Positions 1 through 32,395 of a stretch of DNA of 37,395 nucleotides are shown here, piece by piece. A program made the position numbers and the translations under genes. This DNA is from a virus. Its lineage: Duplodnaviria > Heunggongvirae > Uroviricota > Caudoviricetes. The stretch covers positions 1 to 37,395 of the IMG/VR virus record IMGVR_UViG_3300045988_031779. One strand, given 5' to 3'. The notes under the pieces were generated by a model. It was not told where the DNA came from and ran no database searches. It saw only the letters and a list, made by a program, of their open reading frames with translations. The stretch's first letter is position 1; every line of letters begins with the position of its first letter.

Positions 1-753
1 AGCATTTTTAAATCGACTGACATCTGGAAGAGTTGATACTTTAAAAGTAAGCCCTAATCCGTCAATTTTATAACCTGGAGATGAGGCTTCAAGGCACGCG
101 CTTATTGCAGTGGAATCGTCATTTATACCATCACCAACAGCTCCAAAATCTTTGGGGCTAATAGCATCACGCATTTTATCCTGGAACGTTCGGTACACAG
201 CCCCAGAACCATACTGAATAAACCAACCAAAACCACCAACAACTCCGGCGATTGTAGCATCGACATAATTACGCATTGAGCGATTATTTACAGCGTCCTG
301 CTCAAATGATGGATCTGCAAGGTTAGAAATTTTGTTTTGCTTTGCATCGTAATATTTTGCAAGCAAAGATGGTTTCATCAATGCACGTCTGAACCACCCA
401 AAACATTGCTGGATCAGCATCGTCAGGTAGTCAAAGGCATCTTCATGCACTTCGGGGAAAAATTTTCCCTGATTGCGAAGGTCTGTGTCCTGCACTACAT
501 CAAGCACACGATCTATCGTAATTCGCCATCCAGTAGCAAGCGGAGACGGAAGAACCACAGAACCGCCACTATAAGTGCCCGCCCCAGTTACCGTATAACC
601 GGTATCCAGGACCAATTCTGTTACGTTCCCGTTCAGGTCAGACACCTGAACAACCAGGTCTGATTTTCTGAAAATTCGAAAAGTATACGGAAACGATGTC
701 GTAACGCCGTTACCGGTGTATTCGTTGTGGTCAACTTCGGTTGAGACCGTCAT
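1..753 (-). CDS. Tailspike/tail fibre protein, N-terminal ~251 aa; gene continues beyond window start
   Basis: Reverse-strand ORF starting ATG at 753..751 (GGAG upstream), no stop before position 1. N-terminus MTVSTEVDHNEYTGNGVTTSFPYTF... follows the spacing pattern of the T7 gp17-type virion-attachment domain; followed by FGAVGDGINDDSTAI, typical of the start of a pectate-lyase-like beta-helix. Not in the supplied ORF track because it is partial. Confidence 0.7.
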   Translation of the reverse strand, partial: MTVSTEVDHNEYTGNGVTTSFPYTFRIFRKSDLVVQVSDLNGNVTELVLDTGYTVTGAGTYSGGSVVLPSPLATGWRITIDRVLDVVQDTDLRNQGKFFPEVHEDAFDYLTMLIQQCFGWFRRALMKPSLLAKYYDAKQNKISNLADPSFEQDAVNNRSMRNYVDATIAGVVGGFGWFIQYGSGAVYRTFQDKMRDAISPKDFGAVGDGINDDSTAISACLEASSPGYKIDGLGLTFKVSTLPDVSRFKNA

Positions 754-856
754 GTTAAATCTCCAGATAGTCGCAGCACCCGTTGCGCCGCATATCTGGT
801 TATTCTATTACCTGAAAAACCATATATGGATAAAAAGACTATAAATACCAATAGAT

Positions 857-873
857 ATTACCTTTCGGGTAAT
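857..873. promoter_or_regulatory. Operator-like palindrome site 1: ATTACC-tttcg-GGTAAT
   Basis: Perfect 6-bp inverted half-sites with 5-bp spacer, in the intergenic region between the tailspike start and the small antirepressor-like gene. Confidence 0.5.
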
Positions 874-909
874 TTGCAAAACGTGCTGGATAGCAAACAA
901 ATTATTTGT

Positions 910-929
910 TACTGTATAAACATACAGTT
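910..929 (+). promoter_or_regulatory. LexA (SOS) box-like site TACTGTATAAACATACAGTT
   Basis: CTGT-N8-ACAG with 17 of 20 matches to the E. coli LexA consensus TACTGTATATATATACAGTA; ends 20 bp upstream of the ATG at 949. Confidence 0.6.
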
Positions 930-948
930 ATTGCATGGAGAAGATAAG

Positions 949-1206
949 ATGCAGCAGTATCACTATCCACTGGAAGACGGATTTACCGAAAGGATTCACA
1001 CGCCGGGAGGCGTCAGGTCACTGGTGGAGGGATCGCACTTGATGAAATTACTCCGGGATCTCGATAAGGATGGATTTAATGTCGATGGCCCACTTGCCGA
1101 ACTGACTGCACTGATTAACTACGTCACCAGCTCACAGATGTCTATGCAGGATCTGCAAACACATCTCGACTATTGTGCCGAACAATTACGAAAACAAACC
1201 CGGTAA
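949..1206 (+). CDS. Small antirepressor-like protein (Tum-like), 85 aa
   Basis: ATG at 949 preceded by GGAG with about 8-nt spacing. Track ORF 826..1206 is the same frame but would contain the operator-like site and LexA box, so the shorter start is preferred. Product is clearly similar (roughly 45 percent identity by eye) to the C-terminal domain of the Bro-N antirepressor at 2355..3065. Confidence 0.5.
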   Translation: MQQYHYPLEDGFTERIHTPGGVRSLVEGSHLMKLLRDLDKDGFNVDGPLAELTALINYVTSSQMSMQDLQTHLDYCAEQLRKQTR

Positions 1207-1210
1207 ATTT

Positions 1211-1232
1211 AAAGGCCGCAAGAGCGGCCTAT
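1211..1232. terminator. Candidate bidirectional intrinsic terminator (GGCCGC-aaga-GCGGCC)
   Basis: 6-bp GC stem between convergent genes 949..1206(+) and 1229..1957(-), T/A-rich flanks on both sides; overlaps the stop of the minus-strand gene. Confidence 0.45.
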
Positions 1233-1957
1233 CGTTTCGCTTTGTGCTCGTCCCAGCACGTTTTGCACCATGCCATTAAGCCGTCCGCATTTTGATTATT
1301 AGGGTAAAAGCTGGTCCGTTTTCTGCGGACATTACAAATTGGGCACCACTTCATATGGCGTGTATTCTTTGGGCCATCGAGGCACCTTGCACACCACTTA
1401 GTCAATCCATCTGGATTTTTTGACGATTTCCGGAATTTGTCATATGGAAGGTTTATTCTGCATCGCAAACACTGCTTGCGGCCACTTGAAACTCTGTTAG
1501 CTGATTCTTCTTTTGGCGGCGATACAGAAGGTATTCTTGCTGGCTCTGATACTGCCTGAGGTGCTTTTTTAGATGACTGAGACGATATGTCATCACCAGG
1601 GAATCTTCCATGATATGCCGGACGCGTTGACACTCCAGGTGGAAGCTCAGCTGTAAACGGCTTTGGCTGAATCAGTTGCCTCTCTTTTGCTAACTCCTGC
1701 TGTTTATAATATGTCTGGATTACCGCACTATCATAAGCAGGAGGTACGGAAATATCAGGCGCGTTACCTCCAGTTTTTTGAAACTGAGTAGATGTGTGTT
1801 CTATCACCTGTGTACGACTAATCGTTACCTCCCCATCTTCGGTCTTTATCGTTTTGTTCTGATTAACGACCGTACGATCAGAGATCTTAGTCTTGTTCTG
1901 GTTGATAACGTAAATAATCACCGCAACCACACCAACAACTATCCAGAAAACTTCCAT
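1229..1957 (-). CDS. Single-pass membrane protein with C-terminal tandem Cys-rich (zinc-ribbon-like) repeats, 242 aa
   Basis: ATG at 1957 with GAGGA upstream; hydrophobic N-terminal helix FWIVVGVVAVIIYVI; C-terminus has two similar units NPDGLTKWCARC and NADGLMAWCKTC plus further Cys pairs. No family recognised. Confidence 0.55.
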   Translation of the reverse strand: MEVFWIVVGVVAVIIYVINQNKTKISDRTVVNQNKTIKTEDGEVTISRTQVIEHTSTQFQKTGGNAPDISVPPAYDSAVIQTYYKQQELAKERQLIQPKPFTAELPPGVSTRPAYHGRFPGDDISSQSSKKAPQAVSEPARIPSVSPPKEESANRVSSGRKQCLRCRINLPYDKFRKSSKNPDGLTKWCARCLDGPKNTRHMKWCPICNVRRKRTSFYPNNQNADGLMAWCKTCWDEHKAKR

Positions 1958-1976
1958 TGCTTTTCCTCACAATAAC

Positions 1977-1993
1977 ATTACCTTAAAGGTAAT
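1977..1993. promoter_or_regulatory. Operator-like palindrome site 2: ATTACC-ttaaa-GGTAAT
   Basis: Perfect palindrome 20-36 nt upstream of the start codon of 1229..1957(-). Confidence 0.5.
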
Positions 1994-2069
1994 ATCTTGC
2001 TTTCAGGTGATCAAGCGTTAAACGCAATCAACCAAATACGGTTGATTTTAATATTTCTTCGCGTTTATC

Positions 2070-2086
2070 ATTACCTTTGCGGTAAA
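2070..2086. promoter_or_regulatory. Operator-like palindrome site 3: ATTACC-tttgc-GGTAAA, with candidate promoter just upstream
   Basis: One mismatch to the palindrome; TTGATT (2040..2045) and TTATCA (2065..2070) form a plausible -35/-10 immediately upstream, reading rightward. Confidence 0.4.
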
Positions 2087-2198
2087 TTTACATCGCACTC
2101 CTCTTGTGCCATAGTAATCGGGCACTGGCAAAATCCAGTGCCGGGATTGGCGTCCCGGGTTACTAAGTGGCGCATACCACGCCAGACGTGGTTTTTTT
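2087..2198 (+). ncRNA. Candidate structured leader or small RNA upstream of the Bro-N antirepressor, ending in an intrinsic terminator
   Basis: Stem-loops at 2121..2142 (GGCACTGG-caaaat-CCAGTGCC) and 2141..2158 (CCGGGA-ttggcg-TCCCGG), then terminator 2177..2198. No convincing ORF; track ORF 1997..2308 lacks a ribosome-binding site and crosses the terminator. Confidence 0.3.
2177..2198 (+). terminator. Intrinsic terminator (CCACG-ccaga-CGTGG followed by 7 T)
   Basis: 5-bp GC-rich stem followed by TTTTTTT on the plus strand, about 155 bp upstream of the Bro-N antirepressor start. Confidence 0.5.
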
Positions 2199-2354
2199 AT
2201 GCGTTAAGCACAGCTATATCCGAATTATGGTGGGCTGGGCAGGGGTCCGAAAGGACGCCGGTACCACTTAGGCCGGTACGCCAACCTTGTCCAGTTCACC
2301 ACCAGTAATTGGCGTTGCGGTGGTGATTAAAATCACTAAGTGGAGATAACCACC

Positions 2355-3065
2355 ATGGCTAATGCTCAAACTTCCATCTTCAAATTTGAATCTGTTAACC
2401 CTATCCGTTCCATCATTATCGATGGCCAACCATGGTTTGTAGCCCAAGACGTTTGTAGTGCGCTGCGTATCCAAAACGTCACCCAAGCACTTGAAAAACT
2501 GGATGATGATGAAAGGTCTATGTTCAACATAGGGCATGAACATCGTGCAATTTTTGACAGCCGAGTAAAAGAGATCAACATCATCTCCGAGTCAGGCCTC
2601 TACACACTGATCCTCCGCTGCCGCGACGCAGTGACACCAGGCACTATCCCCTACCGCTTTCGTAAATGGGTTACAGGTGAGGTTCTTCCTCAGATCCGCC
2701 GCACCGGAAGCTACATTAAAAACTCGCTCCCGCAGGAAGAACGCATAAAGATGGTTGCCGACCAGGTAGCCAACGCCACAGCATCAGCAGTGATGCAGGC
2801 AATGAAGATAGAGAACAAAACCTACAGCGCCCCACTGAAGCCCGGCTACCGCAGCCTGATTCATTCGCCGTCTGGTGTTCTCGGCCTGACGGAGCACTCA
2901 CTGCTGATGAATCTGCTGAACCAGTTACAGGACGACGGGCACGACGTATCGGGCGCGGCGGCGGAGCTGACCACCATGTTCTGCTACATCGTCGGTGTGA
3001 GCAAATGCCTGCGTGATATCCAGACCCACGCGGAGTACATCAACGACAAAGCAGGGTTCTTCTGA
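2355..3065 (+). CDS. Bro-N domain antirepressor with Ant/KilA-C-type C-terminal domain, 236 aa
   Basis: ATG at 2355 with GGAG 9 nt upstream (track ORF begins at GTG 2340 in the same frame). N-terminus IFKFESVNPIRSIIIDGQPWFVAQDVCSALRIQN matches the Bro-N signature; C-terminal domain is paralogous to 949..1206. Confidence 0.7.
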   Translation: MANAQTSIFKFESVNPIRSIIIDGQPWFVAQDVCSALRIQNVTQALEKLDDDERSMFNIGHEHRAIFDSRVKEINIISESGLYTLILRCRDAVTPGTIPYRFRKWVTGEVLPQIRRTGSYIKNSLPQEERIKMVADQVANATASAVMQAMKIENKTYSAPLKPGYRSLIHSPSGVLGLTEHSLLMNLLNQLQDDGHDVSGAAAELTTMFCYIVGVSKCLRDIQTHAEYINDKAGFF

Positions 3066-3136
3066 CGGGCGGCGGCACAGGGATGTGTCTTTAAATCATT
3101 CTGTACAGATTGCAGACTGGGAGTGAATAGCGTACT

Positions 3137-3153
3137 ATTACCCTAAAGGTAAA
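3137..3153. promoter_or_regulatory. Operator-like palindrome site 4: ATTACC-ctaaa-GGTAAA
   Basis: 26-42 nt upstream of the ATG at 3179. Confidence 0.45.
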
Positions 3154-3178
3154 CCATGTGTTTACATGAGGAGGAGAT

Positions 3179-3388
3179 ATGGGATTTTGGTTCGCTCGTA
3201 CAAAAACGAGGGATAATGCACCCAGCCCTCAGGCAAAAAATGCAGAAGTTCCGGCGTCAGCGCAGGTTAACAAGCGTGGTGGAGTATATATCTCATCACA
3301 GCAAATTTCTGAGCTTCCTGAGGTTAAAGAGATGCGTCGTCTCGCTGCTGCAATTGTTAAACAGGATCTTGCCACTGTAAGGAAATAG
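3179..3388 (+). CDS. Hypothetical small protein, 69 aa
   Basis: ATG at 3179 with strong GAGGAGGA upstream; ordinary GC content; stop overlaps the GTG start of the next gene (TAGTG). Confidence 0.45.
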   Translation: MGFWFARTKTRDNAPSPQAKNAEVPASAQVNKRGGVYISSQQISELPEVKEMRRLAAAIVKQDLATVRK

Positions 3389-4251
3389 TGTTGTTAGCTC
3401 TTCTAATTATCCCCATTCTGGTTAGTGGTTATATTATGATAACCGCTAACCAGTATCATTATTTCCGTTTATACCGACATGAAGGCCAGCTTCTTTATAT
3501 GAAAGTAGCTGCATTAGGTACATATTGCCTTGTTGCTTCAGTAATAATTGCCGCATTTATAAAATGTAAATATCCTGATTTTCACCTAGTTCACGACATG
3601 GTGGAAACTTTTAATGTAACGTCAAAACCAGAAACAGATAGAATTTACATGTGGCTACTTCTTCTGTCAGTCACATCAATTTGCTTCTCTTTGTGTTATG
3701 TATCTTTTGTTTGGCTAAAAGATCTTCTTTTAGGTTGTTTTTATAAACGTGATATTTATGACAAAATATCAGAGGCAATGAAAGCTAGAGTATTGCGAAA
3801 AACGTACTCCCAGGGTTCTTTAGATTTGCTATTGCTTGATGCAATCGAATCAGATCCTAAGAAACCAATGTTAATTACTTTATCATCAAATAAAGTATAC
3901 GTTGGAATAATAAATGGTTCTGGTGAGCCAACGGAAAATCAAGGGCCACACCAACACATATCTTTTGTTCCTTTAATGTCAGGGTACAGAAACAAAGAAA
4001 ATTTATCTGTTACATTTACAAACGCTTACCCAGGTGAAATCCAAATTAAGCGCAGTGCTGCGATAAAAGGGATAAGCAAAAAGAAAGTTCAAGGTCTAGA
4101 AATTATGGTATCTATAGACGAAATAAGTCATATATCATGGTTTGACTTTGAAGTATATAAGGCAACCAATAACAAAGTAGAAACAAAGGGTCATGTTGTT
4201 AATGTGACCAAAAATGGTCGCAACATATACTACAGAAGTGGCAGGAAATAA
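3388..4251 (+). CDS. Polytopic membrane protein (about 3 predicted TM helices plus ~170-aa soluble C-terminal domain), 287 aa, AT-rich cargo
   Basis: GTG start overlapping the upstream stop, GGAA 5 nt upstream. Hydrophobic segments LLALLIIPILVSGYIMI, VAALGTYCLVASVIIAAFI, MWLLLLSVTSICFSLCYVSFVW. Sequence visibly AT-rich compared with flanking phage genes (by eye, not computed). No family recognised. Confidence 0.6.
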   Translation: MLLALLIIPILVSGYIMITANQYHYFRLYRHEGQLLYMKVAALGTYCLVASVIIAAFIKCKYPDFHLVHDMVETFNVTSKPETDRIYMWLLLLSVTSICFSLCYVSFVWLKDLLLGCFYKRDIYDKISEAMKARVLRKTYSQGSLDLLLLDAIESDPKKPMLITLSSNKVYVGIINGSGEPTENQGPHQHISFVPLMSGYRNKENLSVTFTNAYPGEIQIKRSAAIKGISKKKVQGLEIMVSIDEISHISWFDFEVYKATNNKVETKGHVVNVTKNGRNIYYRSGRK

Positions 4252-4267: not shown

Positions 4268-4780
4268 GTGGCTTATATGGATAATACTATCTTAGGCGCA
4301 TTGATAGGTGCAGTTATTGCTATAGTTTCTACTTACATAAGTGCAAGGCAAGGATACAAAAACAGCATAAAATTAGAGCGCGAAAAAATATTAAGAGATA
4401 AACGTGAGCAATTATTCACAAATTGCATACTTACTGAAAAAGTCATAGCTTCAAACAAAATGGCTATTCTCAATTTTGTTAACAATGCCAGTTACCACTC
4501 TGATAGTAAATTTGACACATCAAAAGTCAATCCGTTGCAAACGATGGAAATGCTAATAAACATATACCTTCCTGAGTATAAAAAAGACTTACAAGAACTC
4601 AATAATATGTATAACAAGTTTCACAATTACTACTCTCAATATACATGTGCACATACCTTCAAAAATATGCCTGATAATGAGAAGTTGAAGTTTATTGAGG
4701 AAGCTGATTTTTATGCAAAAAAGATATATGGCAAACTTAATGATATTAAGGACAAGATATCATTTAACTCAATAGTATAA
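4268..4780 (+). CDS. Membrane-anchored protein (one N-terminal TM helix, Lys/Asn-rich soluble domain), 170 aa, AT-rich cargo
   Basis: ATG at 4268, 16 nt after the previous stop, with AGGTGG upstream. TM helix ILGALIGAVIAIVSTYI. No family recognised. Confidence 0.6.
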   Translation: MAYMDNTILGALIGAVIAIVSTYISARQGYKNSIKLEREKILRDKREQLFTNCILTEKVIASNKMAILNFVNNASYHSDSKFDTSKVNPLQTMEMLINIYLPEYKKDLQELNNMYNKFHNYYSQYTCAHTFKNMPDNEKLKFIEEADFYAKKIYGKLNDIKDKISFNSIV

Positions 4781-21204: not shown

Positions 21205-21281
21205 GTGGCATTAGCTCAGCTGGACAGAGCAACCGCTTTCTAAGCGGTTGGTCGCAGGTTCGAATCCTGCATGCCACGCCA
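21205..21281 (+). tRNA. tRNA-Arg (anticodon UCU)
   Basis: 77-nt cloverleaf folded by hand: 7-bp acceptor stem GTGGCAT/ATGCCAC, D arm GCTC/GAGC, anticodon stem ACCGC/GCGGT with loop TTTCTAA (anticodon TCT), T arm GCAGG-TTCGAAT-CCTGC, discriminator G, encoded CCA. Resembles enterobacterial argU-type tRNAs. Confidence 0.85.
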
Positions 21282-31556: not shown

Positions 31557-31621
31557 TTCACCCATAAGGTAACAAAAATCAAGGATAGTTACCTATGAGG
31601 TGCATTTACCTGTTGGGTAAT
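31557..31621. promoter_or_regulatory. Cluster of three operator-like sites in the repressor/cro divergent region
   Basis: TTCACC-cataa-GGTAAC (31557..31573), GTTACC-tatga-GGTGCA (31588..31604, weakest), TTTACC-tgttg-GGTAAT (31605..31621). Confidence 0.55.
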
Positions 31622-32316: not shown

Positions 32317-32333
32317 ATTACCTAATGGGTAAT
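32317..32333. promoter_or_regulatory. Operator-like palindrome site 13: ATTACC-taatg-GGTAAT
   Basis: Perfect palindrome between the repressor terminator and the rightward early promoter. Confidence 0.5.
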
Positions 32334-32351: not shown

Positions 32352-32395
32352 TTGACATCAAACCAAATACGCATAATTATTACCTCAACGGTAAC
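32352..32395 (+). promoter_or_regulatory. Rightward early promoter candidate (TTGACA, 17 bp, AATTAT) overlapped by operator-like site 14 (ATTACC-tcaac-GGTAAC, 32379..32395)
   Basis: Consensus -35 at 32352..32357, -10-like AATTAT at 32375..32380, palindrome overlapping the -10 and start region. Confidence 0.5.

Follow-up and report, generated by a model that had tools for sequence, protein, structure and literature searches.

We found that the window (the whole stretch of DNA analysed, 37,395 nucleotides) encodes an SOS switch, and we put the probability of the following reading at nearly nine in ten: in this prophage, an 85-aa antirepressor, Ant, derepressed through LexA, would inactivate a repressor, Rep, that does not cleave itself. 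In the lysogen, host LexA bound at 910-929 would keep ant silent, because the LexA box overlaps the inferred -10 element and start site of the promoter. Rep would meanwhile shut the phage promoters through 17-bp ATTACC-N5-GGTAAT operators. As Rep is without an S24 peptidase domain, RecA could not trigger its self-cleavage. After DNA damage, LexA would cleave itself and Ant would be made; Ant would then bind Rep and release it from DNA, and the lytic genes would be derepressed. For the window prophage we infer two of these points, namely that an 88%-identical Ant still recognises a more diverged Rep, and the exact promoter. The sequence-only reading had proposed induction through a LexA-derepressed antirepressor rather than through self-cleavage of the repressor, and this proposal is supported by the experiments on the SPC32H ortholog and by homology.

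The Rep/Ant/LexA system of the Salmonella phage SPC32H, including LexA control of its ant gene, was reportedly worked out by Kim and Ryu in 2013 and Kim et al. in 2016, with the structures PDB 5D50 and 5D4Z. Since it had already been worked out there, little is new here: the window circuit is the known SPC32H system in E. coli, and for this genus of phages the mechanism is standard knowledge. According to the secondary literature, the SOS response induces SPC32H Ant, which blocks the repressor through direct protein-protein contact (PMC7380047). SPC32H Rep sits on palindromic sites as a tetramer; an Ant tetramer engages two Rep dimers, and the DNA-binding Rep tetramer is thereby split into dimers (PMC9638917). 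The window resembles SPC32H in having an orthologous antirepressor (88% identity), a repressor that is homologous end to end, a LexA box placed identically in front of ant, a shared 17-bp ATTACC-N5-GGTAAT palindrome, and an ant gene divergent from the tailspike gene, as also in epsilon15 and phiV10; both phages are Uetakevirus. They differ in the host, which is Salmonella for SPC32H and E. coli for the window, and in the repressor, the window Rep being of the phiV10 immunity type (39-53% identical per domain).

The assignment to this group was made from several features of the window. Bases 700-3300 matched the Escherichia phages TL-2011b, phiV10, ZX5 and others at 92-98%. The order of genes, with the tailspike gene (minus strand, 1-752) followed by a small plus-strand gene and then by the virion genes, is that of phiV10, SPC32H and epsilon15, and the far end of the window encodes RecT, an exonuclease, an excisionase-like protein and a tyrosine integrase. 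Judged by this gene order, the phage matches and the RecT and integrase genes, the window is an epsilon15-like (genus Uetakevirus, phiV10-type) prophage of E. coli. An accessory island of 3.5 kb lies 3' of ant and consists of a 242-aa ORF, an isrK-C4-BroN/Ant-like operon and three ORFs of unknown function. In SPC32H and epsilon15 this island (1229-3065 and the three ORFs) is absent from between ant and the virion genes. The features discussed below are collected in Table 1.

Table 1. Coordinates of the features of the window; putative and inferred elements are worded as such.
Feature	Position	Strand	Remarks
17-bp palindrome ATTACCTTTCGGGTAAT, putative Rep operator	857-873		Between the divergent tailspike and ant genes
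Ant promoter, inferred	887-915	+	-35 TGGATA 887-892; 17-nt spacer; extended -10 TG 907-908; -10 TACTGT 910-915
LexA (SOS) box TACTGTATAAACATACAGTT	910-929		17/20 against the consensus TACTGTATATATATACAGTA
ant, SPC32H-type antirepressor, 85 aa	949-1206	+	Shine-Dalgarno GGAG 937-940; stop 1204-1206
GC-rich hairpin	1213-1230		Between convergent ant and 242-aa ORF
242-aa ORF	1229-1957	-	PHROG 6762, unknown function
Putative Rep operators	1977-1993, 2070-2086		93 bp apart; on either side of the control region between the divergent 242-aa ORF and isrK-C4-BroN operon
isrK RNA	2122-2198	+	Rfam RF01394, 67.7 bits; gathering score 50
C4 antisense RNA	2223-2306	+	Rfam RF01695, 66 bits; gathering score 45
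Bro-N/Ant-like antirepressor	2355-3065	+	Bro-N aa 17-112; Ant-like aa 155-228 (nt 2817-3038)
ORF	3179-3388	+	PHROG 5739
ORF	3388-4251	+	PHROG 3630
ORF	4268-4780	+	PHROG 36918
Putative Rep operator upstream of rep	31606-31620		Motif; epsilon15 counterpart annotated 'repressor'
rep, SPC32H-type repressor, 194 aa	31676-32260	+	Match to PDB 5D50 chain A; no S24
Putative Rep operators after rep	32318-32332, 32380-32394		Motif; epsilon15 counterparts annotated 'repressor'
TTACC-N5-GGTAA, starts of all copies	858, 1978, 2071, 3138, 20868, 24079, 29188, 29250, 31606, 32318, 32380		Motif count

We scored the LexA box against the E. coli LexA 20-mer TACTGTATATATATACAGTA. The CTGT-N8-ACAG core of the box is perfect, and apart from 910-929 no site in the 37 kb window came within 3 mismatches of this 20-mer; 100 shuffles produced no such site, and the analytic expectation for both strands is about 0.003 in the window. 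The near-consensus box (17/20) that the sequence-only reading had placed upstream of the 85-aa gene was thus confirmed, and it is unique in the window. Only 19 nt separate the end of the box from the ant ATG (949). The core taken alone was discarded as evidence, as with up to 1 mismatch it gave 12 sites where 13 were expected; the significance of the box therefore comes from the full 20-mer.

Conservation was evaluated by aligning the stretch between the tailspike gene and ant in nine phages (from Escherichia, Salmonella, Enterobacter and Klebsiella). We observed that four elements were fixed while the sequences flanking them drifted: the LexA box, the 17-bp palindrome, CTGGATA and TGnTACTGT. 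The LexA box occupied the same position in SPC32H, epsilon15 and six other relatives. In the Klebsiella phages, ATGT replaces CTGT in the left half-site, and for this reason LexA control may be weaker in these relatives.

A comparison of SPC32H with SPC32N bears directly on the box. Over the 5.4 kb compared, the two differ at two bases, one of which is a C-to-A change in the CAG of the box, corresponding to C925 of the window; near ant this is the sole difference between them. SPC32N is the published lytic variant of SPC32H. Kim and Ryu are said to have reported in 2013 that the box change alone makes Ant constitutive and that SPC32N grows lytically as a result.

The first six bases of the LexA box also form the TACTGT that we assigned as the -10 element (910-915) of the ant promoter. 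CTGGATA and TGnTACTGT were invariant or nearly so across the nine phages aligned, and in the record of phage 186 the -10 of the SOS promoter p95 is annotated as the TACTGT that opens its LexA site. As a generic sigma-70 promoter scan gave no match at ant, the assignment was made from conservation and from analogy with the layout of 186 p95, which together point to TGGATA/TGnTACTGT as the likeliest ant promoter. Two other candidate promoters were rejected: TTGCAA (874-879) with ACAAAT, for a poor and unconserved -10, and TAGCAA with TATAAA, for a -10 that varies among the relatives. As a separate observation, the LexA boxes of 186 p95 (TACTGTATGTTTATACAGTA, L011 29044-29063) and of SPC32H ant (TACTGTATGTTTATACAGTG, L003 approximately 2618-2637) are identical at 19 of 20 positions, so that 186 and SPC32H share near-identical LexA boxes although the phages and their antirepressors are unrelated.

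The 85-aa gene was present where the earlier reading had placed it (949..1206), and its product proved to be an ortholog of SPC32H Ant. With phmmer, residues 2-84 of the 85 matched chain E ('Anti-repressor protein') of PDB 5D50 (E 4e-47), and Ant was 88% identical to the crystallised SPC32H protein. It belongs to PHROG 450 (E 9e-48), a family labelled 'unknown function', and matched no Pfam family, DinI included. The Shine-Dalgarno GGAG stands eight bases upstream of the ATG at 949. An alternative reading of 126 aa runs from an ATG at 826 through the operator and the LexA box to the ant stop; the short (85-aa) form is backed by the ant CDS of SPC32H and by the 86-residue crystallised chain. 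Many metagenome gene calls take the extended ORF of 126/127 aa (826-1206) over the short one. A tblastn search of 50,697 phage records with Ant found 35 matching records, all epsilon15-like. Downstream of ant, a terminator scan found the 1213-1230 hairpin on the minus strand, and its plus-strand reading, GGCCGCAAGAGCGGCC, is followed by a T-rich tail; the hairpin is probably a bidirectional terminator.

Rep matched chain A ('Repressor') of PDB 5D50 (E 4e-42), with Rep residues 1-190 aligned to chain residues 2-197, and it also matched 5D4Z, which is a construct of the C-terminal domain. Pfam placed HTH_3 at residues 106-147, and residues 21-61 gave a weaker HTH-type match (YdaS, below the family cut-off). 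By these matches, Rep appears to follow the SPC32H-type plan of an N-terminal DNA-binding domain and an HTH_3-like C-terminal oligomerisation domain, without an S24 peptidase. It is 100% identical to phiV10 ORF40 and to ZX5 ORF21, and overexpression of the latter blocked lytic growth and abolished free phage (PMC9782041).

A repressor with two HTH units and no S24 domain had been described for this DNA before, and both parts of that description hold, through HTH_3 and the weaker YdaS-type match on the one hand and the absence of Peptidase_S24 on the other. The Pfam profile search, which was also the suggested way of finding a cryptic S24 domain in the repressor, gave no Peptidase_S24 match in Rep, and none was found in ten neighbouring immunity-region proteins. 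These results bear on induction of the lambda type, in which Rep or another repressor of the window would be cleaved after RecA activation and the LexA box would be incidental. We consider this hardly credible: besides the negative S24 searches, Rep is homologous over its full length to a repressor of solved structure without a protease domain, and phages of four host genera share the LexA box. No point in support of such cleavage was found.

The identity between the window Rep and SPC32H Rep is 53% in the N-terminal domain and 39% in the C-terminal domain. Since Rep has diverged in this way, a conserved Ant-Rep interface is an assumption of the SOS reading. Rep was found in 37 phage records and Ant in 35, essentially the same epsilon15-like set, and from this strict co-occurrence we infer that Ant would bind the diverged Rep. 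Conservation relative to the SPC32H counterparts is asymmetric, at 88% for Ant and 53%/39% for Rep. The asymmetry may be a sign that the surface recognised by Ant is small and conserved, or that Ant acts across immunity types.

We also evaluated the palindrome upstream of the LexA box. The motif TTACC-N5-GGTAA occurs in 11 copies in the window against 0.07 expected, and in the epsilon15 record homologous sites, including the counterpart of 857-873, are annotated as protein_bind 'repressor' (a computational annotation). The copy number and the epsilon15 annotation argue that the element is real and, on the evidence of sequence, the palindrome at 857-873 is a genuine repeated operator-type site. 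Its putative relatives stand at other control points. The pair at 32318-32332 and 32380-32394, 62 bp apart, brackets an early-left promoter (TTGACA/CATAAT), and the operator at 2070-2086 adjoins a promoter, TTTACA-17-CATAGT, whose predicted start coincides with the 5' end of isrK. Two pairs of operators are spaced at exactly 62 bp and one pair at 93 bp, which are roughly whole helical turns; such spacing would suit cooperative or looped binding by tetrameric Rep.

The sequence-only reading had taken the palindrome to imply dual control, with Rep at 857-873 repressing ant alongside LexA so that both would have to be removed. The operator-type site itself stands, and three features fit the idea: the palindrome belongs to the 11-copy operator family, its spacing to the LexA box is constant, at about 36 nt, in the nine phages, and it abuts TTGCAA just as the operator at the isrK promoter abuts its -35 hexamer. 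Dual control, however, goes beyond the evidence, and we regard it as unlikely. As Ant is what removes Rep, an ant gene silenced by Rep would leave LexA cleavage unable to start induction. The operator is centred about 57 bp ahead of the start that the conserved TGGATA/TACTGT promoter would predict, outside the core promoter and upstream of the best-conserved candidate -35. The -10 sequences that would pair with TTGCAA (ACAAAT, or TGATAT in the Salmonella phages) are poor and unconserved. In SPC32N the palindrome is intact, and the sole change near ant is in the LexA box; with its palindrome in this state, SPC32N makes Ant constitutively, as Kim and Ryu are said to have reported in 2013. Finally, the palindrome might just as well belong to the divergent tailspike promoter, for which a conserved minus-strand TAGAAT (803-808) offers a candidate -10.

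When we examined the Bro-N protein of the island, we observed that it ends in an Ant-like domain. The Bro-N domain itself is clear (Pfam E 1e-19). Residues 155-228 are 42% identical to Ant (E 4e-15), in agreement with the earlier claim that Ant is paralogous to the C-terminal domain of this protein, and the C-terminal domain matches PHROG 450 (E 1e-35). It is 97.9% identical to that of ZX5 ORF4, a near-identical Bro-N protein whose overexpression lowered lysogeny approximately 1000-fold (PMC9782041). The ZX5 paper assayed the protein without noting its kinship to Ant (PMC9782041). TL-2011b, Tyrion and a Klebsiella phage also have Bro-N proteins with an Ant-like C-terminal domain, and in the phage collection this domain is confined to the Rep-bearing epsilon15-like group. 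The phiV10 copy is truncated, and its Ant-like domain is lost after about residue 180, apparently by a frameshift. The Bro-N 'anti-repressor' genes of other Uetakeviruses that were compared are L001 4654-5349, L008 2226-2930, L009 2262-2951 and L002 3820-4404. The stand-alone Ants of two Klebsiella phages (L009 1687-1947 and L010 1646-1906) carry the motif DGHDVSGAAAEL, as do the Bro-N C-terminal domains, where the other stand-alone Ants have DGFNVDGPLAEL. The Bro-N-type motif in the Klebsiella Ants suggests exchange between the two paralogs.

The Bro-N gene has a leader that contains the isrK and C4 RNAs. ACCACUUAG, the loop of C4, is complementary to ACUAAGUGG both at the Bro-N ribosome-binding site (2335-2343) and within isrK (2162-2170); the 9-mer ACTAAGTGG occurs at 2162 and 2335, with 0.16 copies expected in the window by chance. 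A third copy lies at 1394-1402, on the sense strand of the 242-aa ORF. In the minimum-free-energy fold the C4 loop is exposed. The energies computed for duplexes between C4 and either the ribosome-binding site or isrK were no clear improvement on shuffles, so pairing is argued here from the exposed loop and the recurrence of the 9-mer. In layout, the leader resembles an RNA switch of the P1 immI or Gifsy-1 isrK-anrP type.

The two antirepressors built on one Ant domain could form a two-stage switch, or latch, with the small Ant gated by LexA alone and the Bro-N protein held behind Rep operators and a C4/isrK block. We offer this only tentatively, as a reading of the sequence that is rather less probable than not. 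Ant made in the SOS response would remove Rep, and the Bro-N/Ant-like protein would then be derepressed as a second antirepressor. If this were true, positive feedback would lock the prophage into induction irreversibly, and through the RNA module the switch would gain an input that is independent of SOS or comes from superinfection. As Ant is conserved at 88% and Rep at 39-53%, Ant might in addition act across the immunity types of Uetakevirus.

A different division of labour would make the Bro-N/Ant-like protein the main inducer, with the LexA-controlled Ant being auxiliary or aimed at the repressors of other prophages. The lower identity of Rep (39-53%) than of Ant (88%) to the SPC32H counterparts would fit this, as would the 1000-fold effect on lysogeny of the near-identical protein in ZX5, a phage with an identical Rep. 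Nevertheless, we consider it improbable. The Bro-N gene has no LexA box of its own, the sole box of the window being at 910-929. Its promoter has Rep operators on its flanks and its translation would be blocked by C4, which means that it could not easily be the first responder to DNA damage. Moreover, some epsilon15-like phages, SPC32H and epsilon15 among them, have Ant and Rep and no Bro-N gene, and SPC32H is SOS-inducible through Ant.

The sequence-only reading had called the 85-aa gene Tum-like, after the antirepressor of coliphage 186. As a functional analogy this stands: in both phages a promoter repressed by LexA, with the SOS-box TACTGT serving as its -10, would drive a small antirepressor acting on a non-cleavable repressor (CI in 186, by the annotations of its record). 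By sequence it does not, as Ant and 186 Tum showed no significant similarity in BLASTP (E 0.061, 14/46 identities). Tum is labelled DinI-like in the 186 record, whereas Ant has no Pfam DinI match, and the repressors of 186 and of the window are unrelated.

Kim and Ryu are said to have called Ant, in 2013, structurally distinct from the Gifsy/Fels-2 antirepressors. The likeness to Gifsy-1, Gifsy-3 and Fels-2 is one of regulation: according to Lemire et al. 2011 (PMC3121763), their antirepressors, which for the Gifsy type include GfoA and GfhA, are SOS-regulated and act in trans, and their repressors are left uncleaved. These are sipho- and myoviruses, whereas the homologs of Ant found by tblastn among the 50,697 phage records were confined to epsilon15-like podoviruses. 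For the Bro-N gene only, the isrK and C4 leader, with its C4 loop set against the ribosome-binding site, recalls the immI region of P1/P7 (c4 RNA-icd-ant) and isrK-orf45-anrP of Gifsy-1. The window module differs from these in that its protein has a C-terminus like SPC32H Ant and its operon promoter is flanked by Rep operators.

The main practical outcome is the gap in the annotation of ant. Of 5426 complete E. coli genomes, 531 (approximately 10%) contained the ant region, with the gene annotated 'hypothetical protein', and it has the same label in phiV10, TL-2011b and ZX5. A 2022 study of ZX5, which has an identical repressor, discussed induction with no mention of LexA, SPC32H or ant (PMC9782041). 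With the SPC32H annotation transferred, the SOS inducibility of a prophage carried by roughly 10% of complete E. coli genomes would be explained, and the Bro-N 'anti-repressor' could be recognised as ending in what would be the same Rep-binding module.

We also observed some further features of the island and its surroundings. The product of the 242-aa ORF (1229-1957) has a hydrophobic N-terminus and a Cys-rich C-terminal repeat that is weakly like the zinc fingers of Stc1 or endonuclease VII. A Rep-type operator lies 20 bp upstream of the start of this ORF, and in the TL-2011b record the region is marked merely as a misc_feature. Another Rep-type operator (3137-3153) lies upstream of the three ORFs without assigned function. 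Elsewhere in the window, a tRNA-Arg(UCU) gene (21205-21281, plus strand) is carried on the strand opposite to the adjoining terminase and head genes.
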